This document shows, piece by piece, positions 6,217 to 59,612 of a stretch of DNA of 64,000 nt. Origin of the DNA: Candidatus Uhrbacteria bacterium (GTDB lineage: Bacteria; Patescibacteriota; Patescibacteriia; UBA9934; GWF2-40-263); NCBI GenBank assembly GCA_023246355.1, contig JAHFIQ010000004.1:2697-66696 (forward strand). Reading direction: 5' to 3'. A model generated the notes under the pieces. That model was not told the origin of the DNA and did not search any database. It saw nothing but the letters and a program-made list of their open reading frames with translations. Within the stretch, counting starts at the first letter, position 1. Each line of letters starts with the position of its first letter. Made by a program: the position numbers and the translations under genes.

Positions 6217-7409
6217 CACCCTCACTCTCCGTCTCTCAGTATCTTGAACTCGTCAACGTTTCCCTTGGACAAATCCCAGCCGACTTTGTGATCGAGGGAG
6301 AAATTTCAGATTATAAAGTGTCTCAAGGGAAGTGGGTGAGTTTTGATTTGAAAGACGAAGAGCATCAAGCGTTGCTCAAGTGCTTCATGACGACGTGGCA
6401 GTTGAAGACGCAGATCGAAGACGGGATGCGCGTGCACGTCAAAGGCGCTCCAAAAATTTACGAACGATTTGGAACGTTCAAGTTGAATGTGACGGAGGTG
6501 GAACCGGTTGGCGAAGGAGCCTTGAAACGTGCCTATGAACTTCTCAAGAAAAAATTAGAACGCGAAGGACTTTTCGATGTCTCGCGTAAACGACCTTTAC
6601 CAAGATTTCCAGAGCGCATCGGGTTGATTACGTCACGTGATGCGGCGGCGTACGGTGACTTCTTGCGCATCCTGAACAATCGTTGGAGTGGGGTGCAGGT
6701 CGTCTTTTGTCATGTACACGTGCAAGGCCGTGAAGCGGTTGACGAGATTGTGCACGCCCTCGACCAGTTGAATGGACTTGCAGATCGTCCTGACGTGATG
6801 GTTCTCACGCGCGGCGGTGGGGGACTGGAAGATCTGCATGCATTCAACGATGAGCAAGTCGCACGCGCCATCTATGCGTCAACGATTCCAGTTGTCTGTG
6901 CGGTGGGACATGAACGTGATGAGTCGCTCGCTGATTTTGTGGCCGACGTTCGTGCGTCAACGCCGTCCAATGCGGCTGAACGCGTGGTGCCATCGCGCGA
7001 GGAGGTCCGATACGAAATCGATGCTCTGTCTGCTCATCTGACATCCTGTGTGAGCGACGCGATTCGTGAACGTCTGTCCGTGATTGATCAAGCAACCAGC
7101 CGTGTGCGTTTTCTGTTGGAAAGGCAAAAGGATCGTTTGCGTCGTTTGTCCGAGACCCTTCAATCAGGATCAGCGCTGTGGTTGTCACGACTCAGTGATC
7201 GCCTTGCCCGTCATGCTCTTGTGCTCAAACAACTCGATCCCAGACGTGTCCTCTCACGCGGGTACAGCATTGTTCGCTTTGCTGGTCGCGTGCTTTCAGA
7301 TGTCTCGACCCTTGAAGTGGGGAGTGAGATTCAGGTACAATTTGCGACAGGCTCGGCTGACGCACAGGTACGTCGACTGAACGGCCGCGGTCAACAGAAA
7401 CTTGTATGA
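6213..7409 (+). CDS. xseA: exodeoxyribonuclease VII large subunit
   Basis: N-terminal OB-fold (VSQYLELVN...FVIEGEISDYKV) and central catalytic region typical of XseA; ORF-track start 6051 rejected because it overlaps the upstream gene. Confidence 0.85.
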   Translation: MTPSLSVSQYLELVNVSLGQIPADFVIEGEISDYKVSQGKWVSFDLKDEEHQALLKCFMTTWQLKTQIEDGMRVHVKGAPKIYERFGTFKLNVTEVEPVGEGALKRAYELLKKKLEREGLFDVSRKRPLPRFPERIGLITSRDAAAYGDFLRILNNRWSGVQVVFCHVHVQGREAVDEIVHALDQLNGLADRPDVMVLTRGGGGLEDLHAFNDEQVARAIYASTIPVVCAVGHERDESLADFVADVRASTPSNAAERVVPSREEVRYEIDALSAHLTSCVSDAIRERLSVIDQATSRVRFLLERQKDRLRRLSETLQSGSALWLSRLSDRLARHALVLKQLDPRRVLSRGYSIVRFAGRVLSDVSTLEVGSEIQVQFATGSADAQVRRLNGRGQQKLV

Positions 7410-7643: not shown

Positions 7644-7997
7644 ATGTCCTATATCCTCTTCCGCTGGATCATCAACGCTCTCGCGCTGCTCCTGGTCGCC
7701 AATGTTGTGCCAGGTTTTGGTGTGGATTCTTTCTACGCCGCGCTGATTGCGGCTCTGGTCTTGGGACTGGTCAATGCCCTGGTACGACCACTGTTTTTTA
7801 TCTTGACGCTCCCCATCACCATCCTCACACTGGGGTTGTTCACGTTTGTCATTAACGCCTTCATGATTCTACTCGTGTCCACGATCGTGAAAGGATTTGT
7901 GGTGGAAGGCTTTACTCCAGCGTTATTGGCCGCCTTGCTCCTGTGGATGTTTTCTCTCGCAACGAACTGGATTATTAAACAAGCAAAGGAATCATAG
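7644..7997 (+). CDS. holin-like membrane protein (Phage_holin_4_2 / DUF360 family)
   Basis: LLLVANVVPGF...ALVRPLFFILTLPITILTLGLF matches the DUF360 core; ATG at 7644 chosen over the longer ORF. Confidence 0.6.
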   Translation: MSYILFRWIINALALLLVANVVPGFGVDSFYAALIAALVLGLVNALVRPLFFILTLPITILTLGLFTFVINAFMILLVSTIVKGFVVEGFTPALLAALLLWMFSLATNWIIKQAKES

Positions 7998-8017: not shown

Positions 8018-8092
8018 AGTAGCAAGTATCAAGTAGCACGTAGCAAGTATTTTCGAAGCGCATATACTTGCTACTTGATACATGCTACTTGC
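8018..8092. repeat. IVS-like long imperfect inverted repeat (AGTAGCAAGTA family), inverted orientation, no cargo
   Basis: arms agtagcaagtatcaagtagcacgtagcaagtat / atacttgctacttgatacatgctacttgc; loop contains gcttcgaaa (reverse complement of the ctccgaaa loop at other copies). Confidence 0.7.
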
Positions 8093-8103
8093 TTCTTTCC
8101 CTT

Positions 8104-10814: not shown

Positions 10815-10881
10815 AGTAGCAAGTATTTAGTAGCAGGTAGCAAGTATACATGCTACTTGATACTTGCTACTCACTTACTAC
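10815..10881. repeat. IVS-like inverted repeat (AGTAGCAAGTA family), short-loop copy between rplJ and rplL
   Basis: agtagcaagtatttagtagcaggtagcaagtata / tgctacttgatacttgctactcac. Confidence 0.7.
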
Positions 10882-25022: not shown

Positions 25023-25435
25023 TTCGTCTGTTGGTCGATGGAGTGGGGATGTGGAGAGAACGTGAGAGTGAGAGTTGTCTCTTGCTAGCTGCCGCCTGGG
25101 CAGATGTAGCAAGGGCAGAACCGCCTGGGATCTTCGTCGACAGCGTGTCGACGAGTCCTGGCCAACCGTGTTGCACGGAAGGCACAAGCGGAATGCAACT
25201 CATTCATCACCATCCTCTCTATCTCCATCACATCCTCCTCACCTTTGTCTGTCCGTTGGACTTATTGTTCGCCGCTCATGTTGAGAAACGACAAGACAAA
25301 CTAACAAGAAGGCTGGTTCTCGTCAAGAGATTCTGTTGGCGAACGTTGGCAAACAAAAAACTCCGACGACTGTCGAAGTTTTTTGCTACTCCTTGGGAGA
25401 GAGTTGGGTAATGAAACCCTCGAAGGGTAGTAGCA

Positions 25436-25516
25436 AGTAGTTAGTAGCAAGTAGCATGTATGTTCACTCCGAAAATACTTGCTACGTGCTACGTGATACT
25501 TGCTACTGCTCTCAGA
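25436..25516. repeat. IVS-like inverted repeat (AGTAGCAAGTA family) at the left junction of the GC-rich segment
   Basis: gtagtagcaagtagttagtagcaagtagcatgtat - gttcactccgaaa - atacttgctacgtgctacgtgatacttgctac. Confidence 0.7.
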
Positions 25517-25570
25517 GCGTCGCCCGACACGTCCTTTCCCCAGCAATGGTTTGAGAGCGTGTCAGGCAGA

Positions 25571-25598
25571 GAGCGCTAGTCACGTCGTTCGCGAACGA
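25571..25598. terminator. perfect 28 bp palindrome AGTCACGTCGTTCGCGAACGACGTGACT (high-GC-style terminator or operator)
   Basis: perfect dyad immediately 3' of the small minus-strand ORF; near-identical palindrome at 27335-27356. Confidence 0.45.
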
Positions 25599-25732
25599 CG
25601 TGACTAGATGATGCCGCGCAGGTGCGGGCCTTCCTCGAAGAGGAGCTTGATCGCGTAGACGGCGGAGAAGGCCATCATCGCATAGAGGACATGCTCGAGC
25701 TCGCACTTCGCGATCAGTTCAATGAAATACAT
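25595..25732 (-). CDS. small hydrophobic protein (45 aa), hypothetical
   Basis: ATG 5 nt after a perfect GGAGGT SD; MYFIELIAKCELEHVLYAMMAFSAVYAIKLLFEEGPHLRGII; shorter than the ORF-track cutoff. Confidence 0.3.
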
Positions 25733-25745
25733 GGGGACCTCCTAG

Positions 25746-25815
25746 TCCTAGCAGGACACGACCGGGGTCATGTTCTCTTAGGACTCGGCGATCGATTTCG
25801 TGTCGATCGCCGTCC
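25746..25815. repeat. ~70 bp upstream element R1 (island repeat family)
   Basis: cctagcaggacacga...atgttctcttagg...GGCGATCGA-tttcgtg-TCGATCGCC; about 87% identical to R3. Confidence 0.6.
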
Positions 25816-25956
25816 GTTGGTTTCTCACCGTGGAGGTTCTGCTCCCTCTGGGCTCACCGTCCGGTGGCCGAAGTTCTCCATTGCTGGATCGCTTCGACCA
25901 CCGGCATCGCAGGTGACGCGCCTGGTTTGAGTCCAGGAACTTGCGGCCGCGGGGAC

Positions 25957-27216
25957 CTACTTCTTCTTGCCCGCCGACTGCATGTCGTTGCGGATCTGGC
26001 GATCCTTCTCGGCGCGCGCTGCCATCTTTGCCAGCTTCCACGCCGGGGCGCCATTGCCGCTCCCGCCGGTCGCACCGCCGTTGCCGACGACGTCTCCGAA
26101 TCGCGGACGCAGGTTCCGGCTGGCCGCCTGGTACTTCAGCTCCTCGTCCATCATCGTCCGCATGGTCTCCTTGAGGGAGTACCCGCGGCCGAAGCGACGG
26201 ATGCAACGCTCGCCGAACGCGTGCCGCCACAGGTCTTTCGACCCGATGCGGCTTCCGTTCTGACGCTCGCGCATCGCACCGATTGGCGGCACCTGGGCCA
26301 CCGACTCGAGCACGAGGTTGCCGCATCCGCAGACGCACCGGAACGCGAGTCCCGACGCGGTGCTGATTCGACCGAAGGGATCGCTCCCCTCGGGCTTCAC
26401 GCTGGGGATCACCAGGATCAGCGGCGCGGACGCAGGGGAGGCCGACTTGCGGGCGGGGAGGACGAGGCCGGGCTTCACGGTCGCCTTGGGCTTGCGGCTC
26501 TCGACGATCTCGCTCACGCGGGCCTGGAGGGCACCCGCGCTGCGGAACAGGAGATCGACACCGAAGCCCGAGAGCTCCGACGGCGTTTCTCCATTCCACC
26601 CGATCACCTTCACGACCTCGCGGTCGTCGGTGAGACGGGCGAGCTCGTCGGCGGCCTTGCACGCGGCGGTGACCGCGGAGAGGTAGTCGGCCTCCATGGC
26701 GCGGGGGTGATCGCTCCACCTCTCCATGATCAGGTCGGTGCGGCTGAAGCCGAACTGCCGGACCAGGACGTGGTCGTCGATCTCATTCACCGCGTCCGCG
26801 AGGCGCGAGAGCCTGTCCGTGTAGACCGCCTCGCCGACGGTGTCGTCGTCGAACTCGTACTCGCTTTCCTCGCTGTCGGCCTCGATCTCCTCGTCGGACG
26901 CCTCTTCCCAGCTCTCGTACGAGCCGGCGAAGTTGTCCCACTCGGTGGCCGTCAGGTAGACCTCGCGGGACTGGACGGACGCGCTCGCGCGCATGCCGCC
27001 GTTCTGCCGACGGTTCAGCTCGCGCTGCCACGCCACGTCCTGCAGAGCCTGGTCCTCGTCGACCATGTCGAGGTTCTCGAGCGCGATGTCCGAGTAGTCG
27101 GGCGAGTTCGCGTCGCCTTCGCTCGTGACGTGGGAAGTGATCCCACGGCGATTGAACTTGATGCCGAGTTCGCGCACGCCTTCGGAGGCGAGGATGGGGC
27201 TGGGGGATCGGGACAT
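25957..27216 (-). CDS. hypothetical acidic protein (419 aa), no recognisable domain
   Basis: ATG 7 nt after AGGAGA; balanced composition unlike the Arg/Pro-rich shadow ORFs on other frames; acidic region (SDEEIEADSEESEYEFDDD); CVCGCG Cys cluster; basic C-terminus GKKK. Confidence 0.5.
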   Translation of the reverse strand: MSRSPSPILASEGVRELGIKFNRRGITSHVTSEGDANSPDYSDIALENLDMVDEDQALQDVAWQRELNRRQNGGMRASASVQSREVYLTATEWDNFAGSYESWEEASDEEIEADSEESEYEFDDDTVGEAVYTDRLSRLADAVNEIDDHVLVRQFGFSRTDLIMERWSDHPRAMEADYLSAVTAACKAADELARLTDDREVVKVIGWNGETPSELSGFGVDLLFRSAGALQARVSEIVESRKPKATVKPGLVLPARKSASPASAPLILVIPSVKPEGSDPFGRISTASGLAFRCVCGCGNLVLESVAQVPPIGAMRERQNGSRIGSKDLWRHAFGERCIRRFGRGYSLKETMRTMMDEELKYQAASRNLRPRFGDVVGNGGATGGSGNGAPAWKLAKMAARAEKDRQIRNDMQSAGKKK

Positions 27217-27254
27217 GAGAATCTCCTGGTTCAGTGGGGGGGGGAAGTAACCTT

Positions 27255-27330
27255 GGGCAAAGCCCTAGCAGTTCACGATTTAAGATCATGGACTCTTAGG
27301 GCTGGGCGAGTCGACTCACGTACGAATCGA
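27255..27330. repeat. ~70 bp upstream element R2 (diverged copy)
   Basis: ccctagcag..cacgat..atcatg..ctcttaggg then GGGCGAgTCGA...TCGAtCGCCC hairpin. Confidence 0.5.
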
Positions 27331-27334
27331 TCGC

Positions 27335-27356
27335 CCACCACGTCGCTCGCGAGCGA
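27335..27356. terminator. perfect 22 bp palindrome CACGTCGCTCGCGAGCGACGTG
   Basis: 3' of the small gene at 27395-27602; paralog of the 25571-25598 palindrome with symmetric T/C and A/G changes. Confidence 0.45.
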
Positions 27357-27394
27357 CGTGGCCGTCGTTCCCTTCGCCGTTGGCGTCTAGCCGT

Positions 27395-27602
27395 TCATCG
27401 AGCGGTCGCGGTCTGCAGGCGGCGGGCCTGCTCCATGCGGCGGACGAAGCGGGGAAGGATCACGGGGACGGCGGGGCGCGGCGGCGGGGTGGTGCCGGTG
27501 CAGAAGATCATGCCGGTCGTGAGAAAACGATCGGCGTCCTCGTCGGTGAAGAAGCGGTCGGTGGCGCGGGCCACCATGAGGATCGTGGGGGAAGGGGGCA
27601 TG
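27395..27602 (-). CDS. small hypothetical protein (69 aa)
   Basis: ATG 7 nt after GGGGAG; the longer ORF to 27715 lacks an SD. Confidence 0.35.
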
Positions 27603-27804
27603 GGAAGACTCCCCTGGTCGGTTGGTTCGGGTCCGACGCAGGAATTCGGAGAAGAATGGTCCAGTGACCTACCCGAAGGTTGGTGTAGACCTGGAACAAC
27701 GGGCATATGGATCAAGTAAGCGTAAGCCTAGTTGGGCCATTTGTTGTTCCTCCTCACGACCGCTTTTGGCGGCCAGAGGTTTCTCTCTCCTCCGAGTTCC
27801 TGTG

Positions 27805-27875
27805 TCAGATTTCCCTAGCAGGACACGATCATCGATCATGTTCTCTTAGGGTTCGGCGATCAATTTCGTGTTGAT
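27805..27875. repeat. ~70 bp upstream element R3
   Basis: cctagcaggacacgatcatcgatcatgttctcttaggg...GGCGATCAA-tttcgtg-TTGATCGCC (compensatory change relative to R1). Confidence 0.6.
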
Positions 27876-28012
27876 CGCCGCCCGTGTGCACCTAGCGTTT
27901 TTTCGGAAGGAGCAGGTGCGCTCCTTCCAACCACCCTTTCGGTTTCCGTTGTTCGCATCCTGTCTGGGACGCGGTAACGGTGGGCTGTGGTGCCCGTGTT
28001 GCTCGCCTCGCG

Positions 28013-28657
28013 CTAGCCGTTGGTTCCGGTTCCTTCGCCCTCGTCCGCCTCGTCCTCATCGGACTCGGCGGGTTCGGGGGCGGCGGTTCCGGCGGCGATC
28101 GCGGCGGCCTCGGCGCGGCGGGCTTCCTCGAGGTCGGCCTTGAACTGCGCGTAGCCTTCCTCGCCGGCGATGAGCTCGAGGATCTGCAGCGAGGTGCGGA
28201 TGTGGAGGCCGTGCTTGCCGATGATCGCGCGCGCGACGGTCTTCTCGGTCTCCTGCGTCGGTGCGTTGAACACCGGCGCGAGGGTCTCGATCAGCACGTC
28301 ACGCTCGCCACGACCGAGCTTCACCGGGCGACCCTCGGGGGTCTTCTTGTCGAGCGCCACGCCTTCCTTGGCCGCCTTCATCTCCGGGATCCAGCTCTGG
28401 AAGTACCACTCGCGGCTGCCGGCTTCGAGCTCGACCTTGGCCATGGCCCACCCGATCTGCACGATCGCGAAGGCGGACTGGCGGGACGAGATCGCGAAGT
28501 CGAACAGCTTCTGTCCGTGGTCCTTGAGCGGCTCGTAGAGACCGACGATGAGTTGGACCGCGAGGTCCGCTTCGTCGCGGGACACCACGGGCGTGGTCTG
28601 GCGCGGAGCCTGGCGGGGGGCGACGGCACTGTTGCGGGTCGGGAGCGTGAGAGACAT
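28013..28657 (-). CDS. hypothetical protein (214 aa) with acidic Ala-rich tail
   Basis: ATG 7 nt after AGGAG; no recognisable motifs. Confidence 0.5.
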   Translation of the reverse strand: MSLTLPTRNSAVAPRQAPRQTTPVVSRDEADLAVQLIVGLYEPLKDHGQKLFDFAISSRQSAFAIVQIGWAMAKVELEAGSREWYFQSWIPEMKAAKEGVALDKKTPEGRPVKLGRGERDVLIETLAPVFNAPTQETEKTVARAIIGKHGLHIRTSLQILELIAGEEGYAQFKADLEEARRAEAAAIAAGTAAPEPAESDEDEADEGEGTGTNG

Positions 28658-29134
28658 TGGGACTCCTGTTCTTGCGGTTGCGGCCGTGTGGCCAGGGAAC
28701 TGAATCGCTCGACGGTCAGAAATGATCCCGTCAGCCTACTGGAGGCCAGCCGTCGCCCTTGCGGGCTATGGCTGGTAAATAGTGGTGCATTGACCGATCC
28801 GAGGATCTGGTGTGCACCGTGGAGATCGGGTGTGTGGGGTGAGTGAGCCAAGGCCCAGTCAATCCACTTGATCTCCTCCGCTCATCGCGGCCGAAGCGTT
28901 GATGAGACGGTTTTACTCTCTCCTCCATGAGGCTGATGGCATCAGAACAAAAACCGGTTGTTGAATACATCGTCCAGAGAGAGATGCGTACAACAACCGG
29001 CCTTTGTGAAGGTTACGATTGATGGCCATTTACTTGGCCTGAGTACTCTCTCCCCAGAAAGTGTTTCGTTGTAAGCTTTGTGTGATCTTGTATGGACGCA
29101 GTCTATCATATTTTGTCAACTTTGTCAAGACTTG

Positions 29135-29157
29135 TTGGGAGCCAGGCTCCCAACTCT
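29135..29157. promoter_or_regulatory. perfect hairpin/palindrome GTTGGGAGCCAGGCTCCCAAC, copy 2 of 2
   Basis: same dyad as 10097-10117, in the 350 bp non-coding region upstream of holB. Confidence 0.4.
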
Positions 29158-29250
29158 AAGCTAAAATTAGCTTAAAATAGCAATACACTCAGTGTTTACA
29201 ATACTGGACATCACAGGGCAATTTCAGCCTCGTGTTATACTAGTGCCTGT

Positions 29251-30150
29251 ATGGGACTTTTTTCTTCCCTCATCGGACACACAAAAGCAAAAGACGTTCT
29301 TTCAAGGATGATCGAACACAAAACCCTTCCACATGCCCTGCTTTTTGTCGGGCCAGATCACGTGGGAAAGACTCTGCTTGCCAAAACGCTGAGTCGTCAG
29401 GTTCTGGGGGTGCAGAATCTTGAGACTCAGCCTGACTATCTCGAGCTCAAACGTTTGGATGATGAAAAAACAGGCAAGCGCAAGTCCAATATCTCTGTGC
29501 GTCAGGTTCGAGAATTGGTGGGAAGGCTATCCATGACCTCGTTTACTGGAGGAGCCAAAGTGATTTTTGTAGAAGAGGCACATAGGCTCTCCATGGGCGG
29601 GGCGAACGCGCTTTTGAAAACATTGGAAGAACCAAAAGGCCAAACGCTTTTTGTCTTGCGAGCTCCGAGCGTTGAAGACGTTCCTGCGACTATTGCATCT
29701 CGTTGTCAGGTCATGCATTTCACGGTGGTCTCTGCATCTGCAATTGTTGATGGGCTTGTGCGAGCTGGATTCAGTCAAGCCGATGCACAAGAGGCGGCGC
29801 TTCACAGCGAAGGTCGGCCAGGACTCGCGCTGCGCTATCTCAAAGACAGTGAGTATCGAGCGCAGCGTGAAACCGATCGAGTGCAAGCAGAGACGTTTTT
29901 GGCAGCGAGTTTGCCAGAGCGTTTGCGCCTGGTGACAGAGCTCATTCCAAAAGCAGAAGTGAACAGTGCGAGTCGTTTGCAAAAAGTGATCACCGAATTG
30001 CAGATGGTCGCTCGTCGAGATCTTCTTGCCACCTCATCTACCTCCTCCACCTTATCCACCTTTCTCGAGCGTCTCTCAGAAGTCCGCCAAGCCGCACGTC
30101 ACAACATCAACCCTCATTTAGCTCTTGAGCACATTGCTCTTGCCACATAA
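29251..30150 (+). CDS. holB: DNA polymerase III delta-prime subunit
   Basis: LPHALLFVGPDHVGKT (Walker A-like), VIFVEEAHRL, SRCQV box; carries an in-frame TSSTSSTLST insert encoded by the CCACCT minisatellite. Confidence 0.8.
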   Translation: MGLFSSLIGHTKAKDVLSRMIEHKTLPHALLFVGPDHVGKTLLAKTLSRQVLGVQNLETQPDYLELKRLDDEKTGKRKSNISVRQVRELVGRLSMTSFTGGAKVIFVEEAHRLSMGGANALLKTLEEPKGQTLFVLRAPSVEDVPATIASRCQVMHFTVVSASAIVDGLVRAGFSQADAQEAALHSEGRPGLALRYLKDSEYRAQRETDRVQAETFLAASLPERLRLVTELIPKAEVNSASRLQKVITELQMVARRDLLATSSTSSTLSTFLERLSEVRQAARHNINPHLALEHIALAT

Positions 30151-31756: not shown

Positions 31757-31854
31757 GTAGCAAACTGTTTAAGTAGCAAGTAGTTAGTAGCAAGTAGCAT
31801 GTATATCTGCTCCGAAAATACTTGCTACATGCTACTTGATACTTGCTACTTCGC
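31754..31854. repeat. IVS-like inverted repeat (AGTAGCAAGTA family), longest empty copy
   Basis: taagtagcaaactgtttaagtagcaagtagttagtagcaagtagcatgtat - atctgctccgaaa - atacttgctacatgctacttgatacttgctacttcgc. Confidence 0.7.
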
Positions 31855-37508: not shown

Positions 37509-38048
37509 ATGACTCACTACGAGTTGCTCGCTGTCCCCATGGACGCGAGCACTGACGATATTCGACGCGGCTTTCGAGAGAAGGCTCAGGTTCTTCACCC
37601 GGATCGGTTTGCCAAGCTCGGCGAGTCGAAGGAGCAACAGACTGAACGGGCTCGCGTGTTTCAGCAACTGCGCGATGCCTACGAAACGCTCATAGATGAA
37701 CGTAAGCGTCGGGCCTATGACCGCCTGATTCAGGTTCCACAGGGTCTTGCTGATCTTGTGCGGCTTCCTGAAGGTCGGCGCGCCATGGCACGACTGCTTC
37801 CTCGAGCGACCAAGCAGGCTCGGGAAGGGGAAGATCGTCTCGTCCTCATCGAGGCTCCGCTATCTTTGCTCAGAACAGGAGGAGTGCTTGAGCTCACAGT
37901 GATTTCTTTACCCGGCTACGATCCACTGTTTGTGCCGCCGAACGCTCTTGACATGCCCTGGGCACATCTGAGCGAGCTGGGAAATCCGGGCGAAAACGAA
38001 GGAAATCCTGGAAACCTCTACCTCTTGCTGATTCCAAGCGCTTCTTGA
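37509..38048 (+). CDS. J-domain (DnaJ-like) protein with unknown C-terminal domain
   Basis: YELLAVPMDASTDDIRRGFREKAQVLHPDR carries the HPD tripeptide; elevated GC. Confidence 0.65.
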   Translation: MTHYELLAVPMDASTDDIRRGFREKAQVLHPDRFAKLGESKEQQTERARVFQQLRDAYETLIDERKRRAYDRLIQVPQGLADLVRLPEGRRAMARLLPRATKQAREGEDRLVLIEAPLSLLRTGGVLELTVISLPGYDPLFVPPNALDMPWAHLSELGNPGENEGNPGNLYLLLIPSAS

Positions 38049-38139
38049 CCCTTTCGGGGGTCATTTTCTTTTGCCCGCTTTTCTTGACATTCTCAGTCGT
38101 TTTGATAGTCTGAGTCCTCCTCTTCCAGGAGTAGGAAAC

Positions 38140-38595
38140 ATGGCCCTGTTTTCACGCAGTGGCGCTCGAAGCGCCCTGTCTACATTCGTTCGTCAAAATG
38201 ATGAAGGCGGCAGCACGGACAGCCGTGCGACTCAGTCCGCTCGATTGCTTCAAGCAGGCTTCGCCCCGATCCTGTGGGACGATGAGCTTGGCGGATTCGT
38301 GAGCGACCCGGCGATCTTCGCCGCGGCCGTGAGTCACATCGCTACTGCCTCCATGGCTCCCGCAAAGCTCGAGGAACTCAAAGCAGTGAAGACCATCCAG
38401 GCGATGCGAGCACTCGCAAAGGACGTGGACGCCAGCATCGTGACGCCCGAGGATGGGGCACTCTCTGCCTTCCTGCGCGGCGTTGCGGCTCTGGGAACCG
38501 ACGGCCGTGTGTGGCTCTTGCTCGTCGCGGCTCATCTTGGCAGCTTGAAAGCAACTGCGCAGCTGCGCCCTCTCATCTACCCCAACCTCAAGTAG
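38140..38595 (+). CDS. hypothetical protein (151 aa)
   Basis: ATG 11 nt after AGGAG; Ala-rich helical; elevated GC. Confidence 0.4.
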   Translation: MALFSRSGARSALSTFVRQNDEGGSTDSRATQSARLLQAGFAPILWDDELGGFVSDPAIFAAAVSHIATASMAPAKLEELKAVKTIQAMRALAKDVDASIVTPEDGALSAFLRGVAALGTDGRVWLLLVAAHLGSLKATAQLRPLIYPNLK

Positions 38596-38601
38596 GATGC
38601 C

Positions 38602-39372
38602 ATGCCCATCGATCCCAGTGACCTGAACGCACTTGCCGATGACAGGTTTCGACAAGGAGAAGGAGGCACAGCGCTCGCAAGGCGCGTGCAAGAAGACCCG
38701 GTCTCTGCTCTGCAGTTGATCGGCTCAACCTCGCTCGCCAGGGGGCAGAGCGCCAAAGCCTTGGACAACATCATCGGCGCGATCGGCGACGATGCGAAGG
38801 CCAAGGACTTGGTCGCGGAGCACGTGACCGCGGAAGTCCAAGCGGAAATCCTGGTGGCATGGGGGGACCGAGTGAGCTCGCTCGCTCAGATCGCCGACCC
38901 GGAAACGCTCATCCAGGCCATCTTCCGGATGAGCCATGAGGAAGGACATCTGGATCTGGCCGTGGCCTGCGCAACGGTTCGGGGGCTCGCGATGCAGATT
39001 CACGATCGTTCTGACTGGGACGAAGTGCTGGATCTGGAACTTTCCAGTGACTTCACCCTGCGGGATCTGCTCGTGATCGCGGTAGCTGCCGAGGTCGATC
39101 CTGTGGACTTGGATCCCAAGGACGCCGGTGATGATGACGAGGATGACGAGACGTCCAGTCAAGGAGCTCGACCGGCGGACGCCTGGGTGAATGTGGGACT
39201 CAATCCCGATGAGGCCGAAGAGCGACTGGAGGAGTTGGAACAGATGTCGCCAGACATCTGGCGCGAAGTGACGGATACGGCTCTGTTCTCTGCTCGTCTG
39301 GCTCTTTCCAAGAAGCGTGAAGAGCTCGGTCTGCCTGCGGATGCGACCCGCGGTTCGGCTCACGACGTGTAG
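38602..39372 (+). CDS. hypothetical acidic protein (256 aa)
   Basis: poly-acidic stretch DAGDDDEDDE; no known motif. Confidence 0.45.
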   Translation: MPIDPSDLNALADDRFRQGEGGTALARRVQEDPVSALQLIGSTSLARGQSAKALDNIIGAIGDDAKAKDLVAEHVTAEVQAEILVAWGDRVSSLAQIADPETLIQAIFRMSHEEGHLDLAVACATVRGLAMQIHDRSDWDEVLDLELSSDFTLRDLLVIAVAAEVDPVDLDPKDAGDDDEDDETSSQGARPADAWVNVGLNPDEAEERLEELEQMSPDIWREVTDTALFSARLALSKKREELGLPADATRGSAHDV

Positions 39373-39490
39373 CTCGCGATCGGCTTACCCACGCAGGGAG
39401 CCGATTTTCTTTCCCGTGACGGTCACGGGAGTTTTCTTCGCCGGTCATGATTCTCATGAACGTCGATTGAACCTTTCACTTGGGGATGCC

Positions 39491-41494
39491 ATGGAGACCG
39501 CACTTGTTCCTGTGCGGCGTTCCATCGCCCCACAGGTTTCTATCTCGCCCTTTGGAGCCATGATTGCCGATCTGGAAGCGCGTGCTTCACAGACCGGCCA
39601 CACTCACTTTGGCCGTGTCACGTGGTCGGCCCTTCCGGTGCGCCACCTGCTTGCTGATGCTGCCGCGCTCATCATCGATGCGGTGGGGAAGCGCAGTGAG
39701 ATGCGTTTGGGAACTCAGACAGACGCAGAACATATCGCCGAAGCCACAGATGCTCGGCTGAACGTGGGAGTGCTTCTGCTGTATGGAACACCTCAATCCG
39801 CGGCTGACGCCTTTGAGCTTCAAGTCTTTGGAGCCTTTAACCGTGCGATCAAAGTCGGATACCGTCCTGGGATGATTCTGACCGACGACGCGTGGCGGGC
39901 CCTGATGCGTGGTGCCTCAGGAATGGCTGTTCAGGAATTGAAGTCGCAGACGCCCTCGGGGGAGCAAGGAGATCTTGCGACCTTCTGGTGTCGTCCGGCG
40001 TATCTGTTTCTGGCGGCCTGTGTGAAGCGCGGAAGGGAACACACAGAAACCATGCGTGCTCGTGCAACGCAGCTCAACCATGAGAACGCTGTTCGCGTTT
40101 CTGAAGTTCATGTCCTGAGTGGTCTGTCTGGCCGTACCATCCGTTGGTTGGAAGGAGATAGCTCGCTCAAAGACCAGCTTGGGAAGGCCCTGCAGCTTTC
40201 CGCCAAGCTCGATGCCTACGAGGCCCTGCTTGCCGTGGGCATTGCCACGCTCAAAGCAGAACAGCCTCTGCGTGGTCACGAGATGTGCGTAGAAGAAAAT
40301 GGGATCTTTCTTCCCTGGCTCAACACCGCGGTTCTCAAGGTCGCCTTGGGGGATGTGAACATCACTCCAGGAGCACTCTCTCCCGAGCAAGCGGTTGAGG
40401 CACAGCAACGGTTGCGTGAACTCGACACCTCGGTGGTCACCGAGCAAGTGGTGTCCGTGGTTCGTTCAAGAGCCCGTCGCGTCGCACCTGCCTTGCTGGT
40501 CCGAGGCCTTGTCCAAGTTCGCGAACATCTCACCGGGCAGGTGGCGAGGCTTGTGAAGAGTCAGCATGCTCCCATGCTGGGTGATCATTTCATTGACCCC
40601 TACTTGGGAAACATCGCAAAGGTCGTGCTCACGCATGAATCCGCCATGGAGTACCTCGATCCCTTCAGCAATGATGATGTCCGCGAGCCATTGCCCGATG
40701 AGCTCATGGCCGCGATCGAAGCCGCGCTTGAGTGGAAACGGTTTGACCCAGAAGAGTTGCAGATGCTGATTGAGGGAGGCTCGCTTCCCCATGAGGTCAT
40801 CGTCAGACACCTGGGCGATCTGACCGCATCCGCCAAAAAGAAAGCTGTTGACACGCTGGTGGAATATCATCCAGAGCTCGTCAACGTGTTGCTCTCTACA
40901 GGGCATCTCGTGTGGGGGCGGGGTTTGGCTGAACGCTGTCTGCCGCATCTGTCTCCGGAATACCTGGCTCGTGCGCTCTGCGAGTCGCTTCTTCAGGAAA
41001 CCGCGTTTGAAGACACTCTGTCCAAATACGTCGGGATCATGCTCTTGCTGCCAGAGGCAAGGCTTCGAGAGATTTGGGCAGACCCCAGGTATCACGAAGC
41101 GCTCGTTGACTTCATGGACGCATTCCTCTTTGACAGTGGTGCCACGGACATTTCAGATGTACAGGAGAAGGCTCTTGCTGAGCGTGTTCTTACGTCCTTT
41201 CGGACCTACGGGCTTGAGGCCTACGTCAAGTTCCGCTCGGCGATCTACGGTGAGGAACCGCTCGTGCCCAAGTCAGAGCGGATGATGCCTCGATGGGAAC
41301 AGACCGCGTCGAGCAAACGCACGAGTTGGACCCTGGTCGTGCGCATGCGGCGGGTCTTTTCCAAGCACCTCGCTGCGATGATCGGTGAACTGTCAGAGGA
41401 AGAGTGTTTTCGACGCTTGGTCCATGACCGCCCAGATCGTGATCAACGTGTGCACGTGTTCCTTGCCAATCGGTCACGCTTCTACGGACCGTAA
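39491..41494 (+). CDS. large hypothetical protein (667 aa), mostly helical, no nucleotide-binding motif found
   Basis: ATG 39491 after GGGGA; the longer ORF-track start overlaps the previous gene; no Walker or catalytic motifs recognised. Confidence 0.5.
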   Translation: METALVPVRRSIAPQVSISPFGAMIADLEARASQTGHTHFGRVTWSALPVRHLLADAAALIIDAVGKRSEMRLGTQTDAEHIAEATDARLNVGVLLLYGTPQSAADAFELQVFGAFNRAIKVGYRPGMILTDDAWRALMRGASGMAVQELKSQTPSGEQGDLATFWCRPAYLFLAACVKRGREHTETMRARATQLNHENAVRVSEVHVLSGLSGRTIRWLEGDSSLKDQLGKALQLSAKLDAYEALLAVGIATLKAEQPLRGHEMCVEENGIFLPWLNTAVLKVALGDVNITPGALSPEQAVEAQQRLRELDTSVVTEQVVSVVRSRARRVAPALLVRGLVQVREHLTGQVARLVKSQHAPMLGDHFIDPYLGNIAKVVLTHESAMEYLDPFSNDDVREPLPDELMAAIEAALEWKRFDPEELQMLIEGGSLPHEVIVRHLGDLTASAKKKAVDTLVEYHPELVNVLLSTGHLVWGRGLAERCLPHLSPEYLARALCESLLQETAFEDTLSKYVGIMLLLPEARLREIWADPRYHEALVDFMDAFLFDSGATDISDVQEKALAERVLTSFRTYGLEAYVKFRSAIYGEEPLVPKSERMMPRWEQTASSKRTSWTLVVRMRRVFSKHLAAMIGELSEEECFRRLVHDRPDRDQRVHVFLANRSRFYGP

Positions 41495-41579
41495 CAGTCA
41501 CAACGACCTGGCCAGCAAATGGCCGGGTTTTATTATTGGACAGCTGTTTGCCAATCGCTTATACTCATCGAGAATTGAG

Positions 41580-41654
41580 GCCGGTGTAGCTCAGGGGTAG
41601 AGCAACACTTTTGTAAAGTGAAGGTCGTGGGTTCGAATCCCTCCACCGGCTCCA
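41580..41654 (+). tRNA. tRNA-Thr (anticodon UGU), CCA encoded
   Basis: acceptor GCCGGTG/CACCGGC, anticodon loop TTTGTAA, T-loop TTCGAAT; one U-U mismatch in the T stem. Confidence 0.75.
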
Positions 41655-41693
41655 TTGACTTATTTCAACGCCACCAGTAGGATCCTCCCATCT

Positions 41694-41849
41694 ATGTCAC
41701 AAGATAATCTCGTCAACCTCGAATGTACGCAGTGCAAACGCGTTGGATACCAGAGCAAGAAGAACAAAAAAAAGCTCAAGGATCGTCTTGAGATGAAGAA
41801 GTTTTGTAAGTGGTGCAAAGGACACGTCCTCCATAAGGAGACAAAATAA
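41694..41849 (+). CDS. rpmG: 50S ribosomal protein L33
   Basis: 51 aa; CTQCKRVGYQSKKNKKK...CKWCKGHVLHKETK zinc-ribbon L33 pattern. Confidence 0.85.
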   Translation: MSQDNLVNLECTQCKRVGYQSKKNKKKLKDRLEMKKFCKWCKGHVLHKETK

Positions 41850-41970
41850 GACTGTTGAAATTCCTTCATCTGCTGCGTTGCGGGACCCGGCCATCGCTTC
41901 GCTGTAGGATTACCTACAGCTCCAGCGACTGGCCACCCGCGCCTTGCAGCTGAAGTTTTTCAACAGTCTT
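41850..41970 (-). ncRNA. ~120 nt structured element, copy A (reverse orientation), candidate sRNA or complex terminator
   Basis: 12 bp closing stem GACTGTTGAAA/TTTCAACAGTC; conserved cores identical to the copy at 61956-62076; apical hairpin CTGTAGG-atta-CCTACAG. Confidence 0.45.
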
Positions 41971-42034
41971 AAATGAAAATCCCCACCTGTTGGTGAGGAG
42001 TGGAGATCGACCGCGTGTCGATCTTTTCGTTTGG

Positions 42035-42601
42035 CTACTCGCTCTGGAGCGCCTTTTCGATCTCGGTCCAGTTGTGCGGATCCTGACCTTCGCCGCCCGA
42101 GACCCAGCTTGCGCGCACGCGACCATCCTGGATCAGGATCAGTGCGTTCTTGGTGCGGCTGCTGAGGTTCGGAGGGTTGATCCTCAGAAGTCGCGACAGC
42201 GTGGCGCTGGGGGAGAACACGGTGCAGCGGGTGGGCTCACGTGTCAGGCCATGCAGGCCCGTGAGGATTCCGCAGCTGTAGAGGACACTGCCGATGAAGT
42301 CGGTCGCGCCACCACCGACCATGACGACCGGTACGCCGAGCCGCTCGCCGTGGCGAAGTACTTGTCCGATTGCGCCGTAATCAGCGAGATCTTCCACACA
42401 CACGAGAAGGTAGGTGCCGTCGCCGGGAAGGAGTTCGCCCACATGGAGCGTTCCGCCGTTGACTGGGGTCACACCACCCACGGGCTTTCGATGGATCTGG
42501 AAGGTGGCGTCTTCTGGCCACTCGATGAGGCTGGTGCTGTGGCCCTTGGACGGGCCGGAGGGAGCAAGGGCGGGAGGAGGAAGAGCGGGCGAGAGAGACA
42601 T
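42035..42601 (-). CDS. hypothetical protein, possibly divergent redoxin/peroxiredoxin-like fold
   Basis: ATG after GGAG; loose Bcp-like spacing (LLVCVED ... ILIQDGRV) but no canonical PGCT; GC ~62%. Confidence 0.3.
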   Translation of the reverse strand: MSLSPALPPPALAPSGPSKGHSTSLIEWPEDATFQIHRKPVGGVTPVNGGTLHVGELLPGDGTYLLVCVEDLADYGAIGQVLRHGERLGVPVVMVGGGATDFIGSVLYSCGILTGLHGLTREPTRCTVFSPSATLSRLLRINPPNLSSRTKNALILIQDGRVRASWVSGGEGQDPHNWTEIEKALQSE

Positions 42602-42750
42602 GGGTGCGTTCAACTCCGGGGGATGGTGGATGTGCATCCGCAAACAGGAGTGTTTCGGAAACACGAGCGCGATTCTACCCTGGCACTCTGAGCAAGTCAA
42701 TGCATGCCTGTGGATGGCGGGGATTCGCTCTGTGGTAGAATTTCACCACT

Positions 42751-58708: not shown

Positions 58709-59152
58709 ATGAAGGTGATCCTGCTCTCAAGCGTCAAGCCGCTTGGAAAAGAAGGGGACGTGGTCGAGGTGTCGGACGGGCACGCACGCAACTTTTTGTT
58801 CCCACAAAGTCTGGCGGTACCAGCAACGGACGAGGCCCTGAAGAAAAAGGCCGAGCGAGAAAAAATCGCCTCAGGCAAAGCCAGCAAGGCCCTTTCAGCG
58901 GCTGGAGACTTGGCGCACAAATTGGAAGGACACGAAGTGTTGCTTGAAGAAAAGGTCAGCGACGGAGGGGTGTTCTTTGCTGCGGTCACAGGAAAGATGA
59001 TTGCCTCAGCGCTCAAGAAAGAGGGTTTTCCGGTCGAAACGGATTGGATCCACATCGAGAGTCCGATCAAAGAACCAGGAGACTACACAGCTTCTGTGTC
59101 CCTGCCTCACGGCTTTGAAGCCGAAATAAAAATCATTGTCGAAGAGAAGTAG
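58709..59152 (+). CDS. rplI: 50S ribosomal protein L9
   Basis: MKVILLSSVKPLGKEGDVVEVSDGHARNFLFP N-terminus. Confidence 0.85.
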   Translation: MKVILLSSVKPLGKEGDVVEVSDGHARNFLFPQSLAVPATDEALKKKAEREKIASGKASKALSAAGDLAHKLEGHEVLLEEKVSDGGVFFAAVTGKMIASALKKEGFPVETDWIHIESPIKEPGDYTASVSLPHGFEAEIKIIVEEK

Positions 59153-59185
59153 CAAGTATCAAGTAGCATGTAGCAAGTATGCTCA
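59152..59185. repeat. IVS-like element, left arm (with cargo gene)
   Basis: agtagcaagtatcaagtagcatgtagcaagtat. Confidence 0.7.
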
Positions 59186-59565: not shown

Positions 59566-59612
59566 ATATACTTGCTACTTACTACTTGATACTTGCTACT
59601 TTCCTTTATGAA
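59566..59612. repeat. IVS-like element, right arm
   Basis: atacttgctacttactacttgatacttgctacttt; the pyrG start lies at its edge. Confidence 0.7.

Follow-up and report, generated by a model that had tools for sequence, protein, structure and literature searches.

A GC-rich locus of orphan genes and structured RNA elements at a fixed chromosomal site in Candidatus Uhrbacteria

In integron cassette arrays and in clusters of attC sites lacking an integrase (CALINs), each of the co-oriented open reading frames (ORFs) has a hairpin on its 3′ side, an imperfect palindrome whose base is conserved and whose tip varies; the cargo is of unknown function, and a unit of one gene and its hairpin can be shifted to a promoter-proximal place. 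The boxes of attC read RYYYAAC (R″) and GTTRRRY (R′), and extrahelical bases make the folded strand asymmetric. A locus of similar outline is present in a 64,000-nt stretch of a Candidatus Uhrbacteria contig (JAHFIQ010000004.1), which we analyzed in full and refer to as the window. Here a GC-rich island carries three minus-strand orphan genes, named small, mid and large, each followed by a module of two hairpins (H1 and H2), together with a tiny ORF, and is preceded by a leader predicted to be highly structured. Our tentative interpretation, which we hold at somewhat less than even confidence, is that this island is an operon resident in Uhrbacteria. A structured leader of the attenuator type would open it, two-hairpin RNA modules would lie between its cistrons and mark the points at which its fast-evolving orphan genes are exchanged, and its extreme codon composition would be actively maintained.

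Other described systems resemble parts of the locus. The RNase III sites of the phage T7 early region and the repetitive extragenic palindromes and related mosaic elements (REP/BIME), which protect the mRNA upstream of them, are, like the modules, irregular, internally looped hairpins lying between cistrons in sense orientation without a U-tract, an analogy that would suit a part in processing or 3′-end protection. The modules differ in having invariant motifs of their own (CCUAAGAG...CAUGA / UCGUG...CUGCUAGG) and in occurring at one locus only, whereas REP elements are genome-wide; this host has a different genome-wide hairpin repeat. O-antigen and capsule clusters and bacteriocin/immunity loci share with the island a fixed site, a deviant composition and divergent coexisting alleles exchanged in conserved borders, and bacteriocin loci also contain small hydrophobic peptides. 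However, such loci usually have a GC content below that of the genome and recognisable enzymes or transporters, whereas the island combines an extremely high GC content at third codon positions (GC3) with orphan proteins and non-coding parts of predicted structured RNA. Riboswitch and attenuator leaders and type III toxin-antitoxin loci likewise place a promoter before a structured RNA whose intrinsic terminator can limit read-through; the leader of the island differs from them in matching no Rfam family, in having the bulk of its structure (helices P4-P7) after the terminator, and in being accompanied neither by tandem antitoxin repeats nor by a ToxN-like protein. Full-text literature searches returned no description of the locus, and nothing comparable was present in the databases searched.

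The GC content of positions 25520-28900 is 0.647, against 0.514 for the rest of the window, with peaks of 0.66-0.70 in 400-nt windows and sharp edges on both sides; the GC-rich part spans ~25.55-28.9 kb. The tetranucleotide profile of the segment correlated with the host mean at r = 0.21, compared with 0.46 ± 0.06 (minimum 0.39) for 17 host segments of 3.35 kb each. Four minus-strand ORFs are the true coding frames, with GC3 of 0.86-0.90 and ordinary GC2; GC3 is 0.42-0.69 in all other long ORFs of the window. Since GC3 is extreme while GC2 is ordinary, the anomaly is almost entirely synonymous. In the long ORFs that overlap them in other frames, GC peaks at codon position 1, which marks these ORFs as by-products. 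Antisense overlapping genes were ruled out as a source of the high GC3, the long antisense ORFs peaking at codon position 1 and being interrupted in a relative, L011. TTC, ATC, AAG and CAG are chosen at ~0.96 in the island, whereas host genes favour TTT, ATT, AAA and CAA. With GC1, GC2 and GC3 at 0.65-0.70, 0.47 and 0.90, island genes and spacers resemble a genome of ~67% GC, and Shine-Dalgarno (SD)-like AGGAG/GGGGAG boxes stand ahead of the genes. These data bear out the initial annotation, made from the sequence of the window, in its description of a sharply bounded high-GC island of undescribed minus-strand genes whose tetranucleotide signature and regulatory syntax are unlike those of the flanks. 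Independent gene callers agreed on all four genes; the sizes first given as 419 and 214 aa stood, and those given as 45 and 69 aa were corrected to 42 and 68 aa. Elsewhere in the window, several ORFs at 38000-42700 show mildly raised GC3 (0.62-0.74, against a norm of ~0.5-0.6), far below the island level.

Both junctions of the island were 100% identical in the ENA assemblies ERZ27280116 and ERZ27297344 and in the Logan assemblies SRR14366785 and SRR14366787. Because independent assemblies share identical junctions, an assembly chimera was rejected. Wherever the contig of a relative reaches the flanks, the island has holB (DNA polymerase III delta′) on one side and TrmB-GT4-MreB on the other. 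These same-site loci are L008, L009, L011, L014, L016/L017, L019, L024, L025 and L029, with large proteins down to 29-43% identity to that of the window; all loci were retrieved via island proteins or motifs, Uhrbacteria without the island falling outside the sample. Flanking housekeeping proteins of island-bearing metagenome-assembled genomes (MAGs) are only 49-98% identical, and MAGs with the same site and the same genes come from different studies. The records that have names are Candidatus Uhrbacteria, GW2011_GWF2_39_13 among them, and none is from a high-GC taxon. One record (L011, CAYHRJ010000007.1) is titled ‘uncultured Gammaproteobacteria bacterium’; its gene order is that of Uhrbacteria, its flank proteins are 80-98% identical to those of the window, and the bin is probably mislabelled.

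No lineage lacked the compositional contrast, not even those of the most distant family members: GC3 of the island genes is 0.74-0.98, and that of their host neighbours 0.33-0.66. Between lineages, the flanking genes have reached saturation at synonymous sites (proportion of synonymous differences, pS, 0.57-0.76; ratio of nonsynonymous to synonymous substitution rates, dN/dS, 0.06-0.13), and a passive foreign signature should therefore have decayed. Judged from these comparisons, the composition of the island appears to be maintained rather than to be the fading signature of a donor. Recent acquisition from a high-GC organism, as the initial annotation had suggested, or a chimera would account for the 13-point GC step and the deviant tetranucleotide profile, and acquisition also for hairpins without U-tract, as in high-GC bacteria. 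Against this, the junctions recur unchanged in independent assemblies, site and genes recur in MAGs of different studies, the GC3 anomaly persists at this site in all retrieved relatives despite saturation, and the large-protein family is confined to the locus, with 29 representatives among 1.84 billion cluster representatives, none named from a high-GC taxon. We therefore regard a recent import or a chimera as highly improbable.

The unit, 3.5 kb long, reaches beyond the GC-rich part, to position 29128, by way of a leader of ordinary GC. Only one promoter-like site was found in 25200-29300, a sigma70-type promoter (29128-29100) whose -35 box and extended -10 box are kept in 7/7 aligned loci; it would place the transcription start near 29093. 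Folding of seven leader sequences with RNAalifold gave 91 predicted pairs, with compensatory changes in 33 of them. In this alignment 94.1% of cells were paired, compared with 37-43% when partners were slid by 1-3 columns, and 0/500 column shuffles matched the observed covariation. The P3 helix covaries and its U-run is retained in 7/7 loci, and helices 5-12 of the P4-P7 domain are paired in 86-100%, most with pairs changed on both sides. GGRGRAGAGAG boxes occur at 29046-29058 and 28916-28928, and one invariant pair of the leader is G-U on the minus (sense) strand. Conservation of the leader far exceeds that of the genes, with a 20-nt core that is invariant in all loci, including those with only ~50% identity in holB. 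These data indicate that the leader is a structured RNA of the sense strand. At gathering scores Rfam matched only four tRNAs in the whole window, and at E ≤ 10 it gave only chance microRNA-type matches in 25300-29200, none of them on the leader or the modules.

A second leader domain lies upstream of the small gene in the window; in other clades it stands directly behind leader domain 1. It is 80-83% identical at the nucleotide level to its counterparts in L008, L009 and L024, which exceeds the identity of coding DNA, and it is partly paralogous to the first domain (local similarity score to the P7 region 28, against 16.6 ± 2.2 for shuffles). In L009, two extra insertions of ~100-150 nt, heptamer-like repeats included, occupy positions L009:7620-7770 and 7860-7960 of the leader, where other loci have short linkers; in this case the leader tolerates insertions between helices.

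The modules are the second structured element. A covariance model built from 12 copies found 23 copies from ten sources, all inside islands and all in gene orientation, and in every island the small, the mid and the large gene each have one module behind them. H1 is a strong hairpin of 9-15 bp whose sequence drifts freely while its pairing is retained. H2 has an invariant base and internal loops (CCCUA-AG-AG-n-nCAUGA ... UCGUGn-n-CU-GC-UAGGG), predicted as a symmetric 2x2 internal loop and a 1x1 mismatch, below an apical part ranging from 3 nt to about 200 nt; written as DNA, the base of 22 distinct copies reads CCCTAAG...GCTAGGG, with CCCTGAG/GTCAGG and CCTTGAG/CCAAGG occurring as variants. 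A strict H2 pattern matched the window three times (0 expected) and six further loci in metagenomic contigs, all of them GC-rich islands, and gave no match in IMG/VR. Double changes were seen in 16/24 module pairs; 91.7% of cells were paired, compared with 25-43% once the partners had been slid, and none of 500 shuffles equalled the observed value. The three repeat copies of the initial annotation are real, and the stems and compensatory changes it quoted are present as stated. Its view of them as upstream cassettes 5′ of the genes had to be given up, the repeats lying 3′ of a core gene in every related island.

At R1, an SD box and the tiny ORF directly follow H2. No U-tract was found at R1-R3, and the modules are not canonical intrinsic terminators. 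Since the spacing of the H2 half-sites varies from 3 to about 200 nt, a dimeric operator in double-stranded DNA was ruled out and H2 fits a folded single strand. We favour RNA as that strand because the modules are sense-oriented, occupy 3′ untranslated regions, adjoin a leader RNA, and have the SD-ATG of tiny ORFs right after H2. Heptamer arrays in the style of the genome-wide hairpin repeat of the host, (GTAGTCG)n and (CCAACTT)n-like, were observed within the H2 apex behind the large gene of L008 (L008:7060-7215) and beside a module in L011 (~6800-7000); the L008 case indicates that the H2 tip tolerates large insertions.

Evidence for allele exchange came from L012, a 2.5-kb contig of a near-identical strain, which is 98-100% identical to the window in the flank, leader domain 2, R3, R2 and R1. 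Its large gene encodes a protein only 49-50% identical to that of the window, with 30-80% nucleotide identity per 60-nt block. Identity stops at the SD/start of the large gene and returns exactly at the 5′ edge of R1, and R2 is 100% identical despite adjoining this divergent gene. Shorter divergent patches occur in the N-terminal part of the small gene and midway through the tiny ORF. Both large-gene alleles co-occur in SRR14366783 and in ERZ27296333. Across lineages, too, divergence of island proteins is discordant with that of the host: in L009, host proteins show 82-91% identity and the large protein 49%, whereas the corresponding values in L008 are 75-83% (MreB 98%) and 65%. Island genes have dN/dS of 0.36-0.70 (one poorly aligned pair left out) and a proportion of nonsynonymous differences (pN) of up to 0.35, compared with dN/dS of 0.06-0.13 for host genes. 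The mid gene of the window and that of L011 differ at a pS of 0.23, below the 0.61-0.69 of host genes.

Most loci have the order small-mid-large; the clade of the window has mid-small-large, and there the large gene is preceded by a module of the ‘mid’ type. The change of order corresponds to a single relocation of the mid gene, together with a module, to the place directly behind leader domain 1. Together, these patterns suggest that the locus behaves as a recombining, diversifying one in which conserved RNA elements mark the points of exchange. The earlier notion of modular cassettes is in part borne out, gene order differing between clades and one gene having been exchanged exactly between two modules.

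A rival reading is a CALIN-type array, in which each cassette would be made up of a gene and its 3′ hairpin, with H2 folding in single-stranded DNA as a counterpart of attC and being recombined by a tyrosine recombinase encoded elsewhere. Such an array would explain units of ORF plus 3′ imperfect palindrome all in one orientation, a conserved paired base with internal loops and a terminal structure of 3-200 nt (the general layout of attC), allele exchange bounded by modules, and, in the clade of the window, the ‘mid’-type module before the large gene and the move of the mid gene with a module to first place behind promoter and leader, as excision and attI-like re-insertion would give; the ambiguous strand evidence from wobble pairs also agrees with it. 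However, the boxes read CCCTAAG...GCTAGGG where attC has RYYYAAC...GTTRRRY, with no AAC/GTT triplets; the internal loops show symmetry and no extrahelical bases; and an extra hairpin, H1, is present in every unit. IntI was not found, nor was any recombinase among called genes within about 10 kb of any locus. Every array holds the same three gene families across species rather than variable cargo, the loci taken together show a single change of order, the segment exchanged in L012 leaves out the module that a cassette would carry, and the place of attI/Pc is taken by a conserved leader that is clearly sense-strand RNA. We consider an integron-like array improbable.

The proteins encoded by the island gave no clue from known families. 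Searches of Pfam, PHROGs, NCBIfam and PADLOC with the four window proteins, and of Pfam with ten distant family members, returned only sub-threshold noise, in agreement with the initial statement that no domain is recognisable, and a profile search of PDB sequences found nothing except one designed protein (E = 0.006). The large protein is acidic in its N-terminal part and helical in the middle; a CxCxC...H...C domain with strong conservation and a Gly-rich linker follow, and the C-terminal helix is basic. Invariant columns were found in the family alignment; its AlphaFold2 model is poor (predicted local distance difference test score, pLDDT, 49.5). Extension of the family by profile search of a word-indexed protein database added one protein only, and the 20-sequence family alignment was too divergent to serve for locus scanning. 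The small protein is 42-47% identical to small ORFs of L007, L008 and L009, and the mid protein, a helical bundle with an acidic tail, had no fold neighbour in our searches.

The tiny ORF encodes one hydrophobic helix (top 17-residue Kyte-Doolittle hydrophobicity 1.81) and a conserved C-terminus, ...GPHLRGII, with a 46-aa homologue in L007. Two families of single-helix hydrophobic peptides of 40-46 aa recur right behind modules. One tiny-ORF family, beginning MKFRDI..., stands directly behind a module between the small and mid genes, and L007 has two tandem tiny ORFs downstream of its large gene. Further tiny single-helix ORFs of high GC3 were noted at L024:5117-5242, L022:159-281, L019:7819-7947 and L007:3179-3459. 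An RNA-phage-like origin, considered in view of the size of the unit, its hairpins and a tiny ORF resembling a lysis gene, was dropped, no replicase, coat or maturation family being detectable.

An old mobile element is a more serious contender, although we consider it unlikely. In this view a tiny unit akin to a virus, plasmid or satellite would circulate among Uhrbacteria, either inserting at no other site or being swapped through homologous recombination of its flanks, and would keep its own composition, with the membrane peptides as lysis or toxin genes and the hairpin modules as genome-structure or packaging signals. This would fit a composition and tetranucleotide signature that deviate from the host in every lineage, codon-position values like those of a ~67% GC replicon, the low pS of the mid gene and the discordant divergence of island proteins as signs of lateral exchange, and a compact one-directional gene set with tiny ORFs of a single transmembrane segment. 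Several contigs consist of the island only (L007, 3495 nt; L018; L022; L027), but the only coverage values to be had, taken from contig names, were 2 for an island-only contig and 4 for one with island and flank, which is not multicopy. No integrase, Rep, capsid, polymerase or other viral or plasmid hallmark scored above threshold in Pfam, PHROGs, NCBIfam or PADLOC, and no island relative was found by pattern and protein scans of IMG/VR, in BFVD, or by tblastn against INPHARED phages and PLSDB plasmids. The gene orders are not circular permutations of each other, and the promoter and the leader of host-like GC are conserved, as is the site, even in lineages where holB is only ~50% identical. 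These results speak against the integrated replicon or virus-like unit proposed at first.

Called neighbours at seven loci were holB, a BNR protein, the ribosome recycling factor (RRF), a tRNA synthetase, TrmB, GT4, MreB, DUF4012 and GT2; no Phage_integrase match occurred among called genes within about 10 kb at these loci, the rest of the genomes not having been searched. There is no tRNA within 7 kb of the island and no convincing direct or att-like repeat at its borders, and the earlier report of neither integrase, tRNA nor border repeat was thereby upheld. An element exploiting dif/Xer (IMEX) was rejected: cumulative GC skew rises monotonically over 20-34 kb, and flanking genes lie on the same strand on both sides.

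We return to the resident operon as the reading we prefer. In it, the sigma70-type promoter divergent from holB would start the leader RNA of ~430 nt, whose own intrinsic terminator would probably make entry into the genes conditional, by attenuation. Behind the leader would follow the three fast-evolving orphan genes and one or two tiny membrane-peptide genes. A single polycistronic transcript is proposed for the whole unit because it contains one promoter-like site and because the SD-ATG of the tiny ORFs abuts H2. In this transcript the modules may be intercistronic sites of processing, 3′-end protection or protein binding, and may also gate translation of the ORF that begins immediately downstream of H2. 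Since the modules have changed far less than the genes, they and the leader could supply the homology for allele exchange between strains and lineages, in a recombining and diversifying locus possibly of ‘conflict type’. Use of G- and C-ending codons would be maintained by selection on codons or mRNA, or by GC-biased conversion at a recombination hot spot.

Several points weigh against this reading. With retrieval based on the island, ‘resident’ could still be ‘site-specific and mobile’. None of the databases searched allowed a function to be assigned to any island protein or RNA. One invariant U-G pair aside, wobble counts in the modules are strand-neutral (17 G-U against 16 A-C), and the modules might still act as single-stranded DNA. 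The synonymous divergence (dS) of the island is underestimated, its third positions being confined to G and C. As to the cause of the high GC3, absolute folding stability per nucleotide is much higher in island genes than in host genes, but the coding regions fold no more than synonymous shuffles (z -0.2 to -1.4); since shuffles fold equally well, specific mRNA structure fails to explain GC3. Weakly conserved 3′ spacers of the islands have 57% GC, against 49% in host intergenic DNA, a value that a force acting purely on codons would not cleanly explain, nor would a purely regional one. GC-biased conversion at a recombination hot spot, or another regional force, may have a share in the bias, but it falls far short of the observed GC3. 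Translational selection of the host type was also considered and is unsupported: rplJ has a GC3 of 0.53, and the host prefers TTT, AAA and CAA where the island has TTC, AAG and CAG.

A further view, which we regard as a long shot, is that of an RNA-centred, chromosomally fixed element of a new kind. Its proteins would act on or package their own transcript via H2 and the leader, and its codons would be tuned to another regime, for example through expression in a high-GC bacterium carrying the episymbiont, or through exchange with it, in a logic like that of T-DNA.

The features of the locus and of its surroundings are collected in Table 1.

Table 1. Coordinates of the predicted elements of the island and of associated repeats in the window
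Feature	Position	Strand	Description
Promoter, sigma70-type	29100-29128	minus	TTGACA, 17-nt spacer, TG-n-TAGACT; divergent from holB
Leader RNA	28658-29093	minus	~430 nt; P1, P2, P3, P4-P7; highly structured (predicted)
Leader P1 hairpin	29045-29062	minus	RNAalifold
Leader P2 hairpin	29024-29040	minus	RNAalifold
Leader P3	28945-29004	minus	Long hairpin followed by U-tract; inverted repeat; putative intrinsic terminator/attenuator element
Leader P4-P7 multi-helix junction domain	28724-28943	minus	Closing helix CAGCCUCAUGGAGG / CCUCCAGUAGGCUG
‘Mid’ gene	28013-28657	minus	214 aa; all-helical orphan protein with acidic C-terminal tail
Module R3 (H1 + H2)	27808-27883	minus	3′ of mid gene; covariance model 83.5 bits
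Second leader domain	27602-27800	minus	Upstream of small gene; begins UCGGAGGAGAGAG (27783-27795); P6/P7-like hairpins
‘Small’ gene	27395-27601	minus	68 aa; GC3 0.89; called in independent assemblies
Perfect GC-rich palindrome	27339-27360	.	CACGTCGCTCGCGAGCGACGTG; 27-nt insertion, absent from otherwise identical L012
Module R2	27258-27339	minus	3′ of small gene, 5′ of large gene; covariance model 74.2 bits
‘Large’ gene	25957-27216	minus	419 aa; GC3 0.90
Module R1	25741-25815	minus	3′ of large gene; covariance model 87.3 bits
Tiny ORF	25604-25732	minus	42 aa; GC3 0.86; called in independent assemblies
Second palindrome copy	25581-25602	.	CACGTCGTTCGCGAACGACGTG; 28-nt insertion absent from L012; CTAG on both sides
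Heptamer hairpins	8019-8095, 10816-10870, 25430-25506, 31773-31849, 59149-59180, 59568-59599		

Two further kinds of repeat touch the island. The initial annotation had described two near-identical palindromes as terminators; the palindromes are exact and present in two copies (2 matches of the exact pattern in the window, 0 expected), whereas the role assigned to them fails, as they are strain-specific insertions absent from L012 and no U-run was found behind either. Another copy of the 22-nt palindrome CACGTCGYTCGCGARCGACGTG lies at L011:5286-5307, an unrelated intergenic site near the start of holB, and the palindrome was seen at three distinct sites only. It appears from this distribution to behave as a small mobile insertion outside the ancestral design. 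The closest parallel is with the GC clusters of yeast mitochondria, which are likewise perfect GC-rich palindromes of small size whose presence varies between near-identical genomes; the copies at unrelated intergenic sites and the duplicated CTAG at one palindrome add to the likeness, whereas organism and sequence differ and only three distinct sites are involved here.

The ‘IVS-like hairpin’ (25416-25520) said to lie exactly at the left junction turned out to be one of at least six host-wide heptamer-repeat hairpins, and stands ~60 nt beyond the end of the island. This host family of intergenic hairpins consists of inverted arrays of the heptamer GTAGCAA/GTATCAA (31 matches against 0.2 expected). 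At 25354-25385, between the convergent TrmB gene and the island, is a canonical bidirectional intrinsic terminator (A-run, hairpin, T-run), from which it follows that the host uses ordinary U-tract terminators.

If confirmed, the island would be a rare and clean case of a vertically sited bacterial locus that holds a GC3 excess of 30-60 points across lineages whose synonymous sites are saturated. One small locus would then allow a direct test of what sets GC3, be it selection, biased gene conversion or foreign origin, with hosts whose GC3 ranges from 0.33 to 0.66 serving as natural replicates. The leader of ~430 nt and the double-hairpin module of 75 nt would add two new, well-supported classes of structured RNA from the little-known bacteria of the candidate phyla radiation (CPR; Patescibacteria). 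As a compositional island without mobility genes that is resident throughout a lineage rather than recently imported, the locus would also be a caution for island-finding methods. Finally, the locus would hold four or five fast-evolving orphan protein families with very divergent alleles coexisting in one population. Such coexistence is a hallmark of conflict or recognition systems, and would here be found in organisms whose host interactions are largely unknown.

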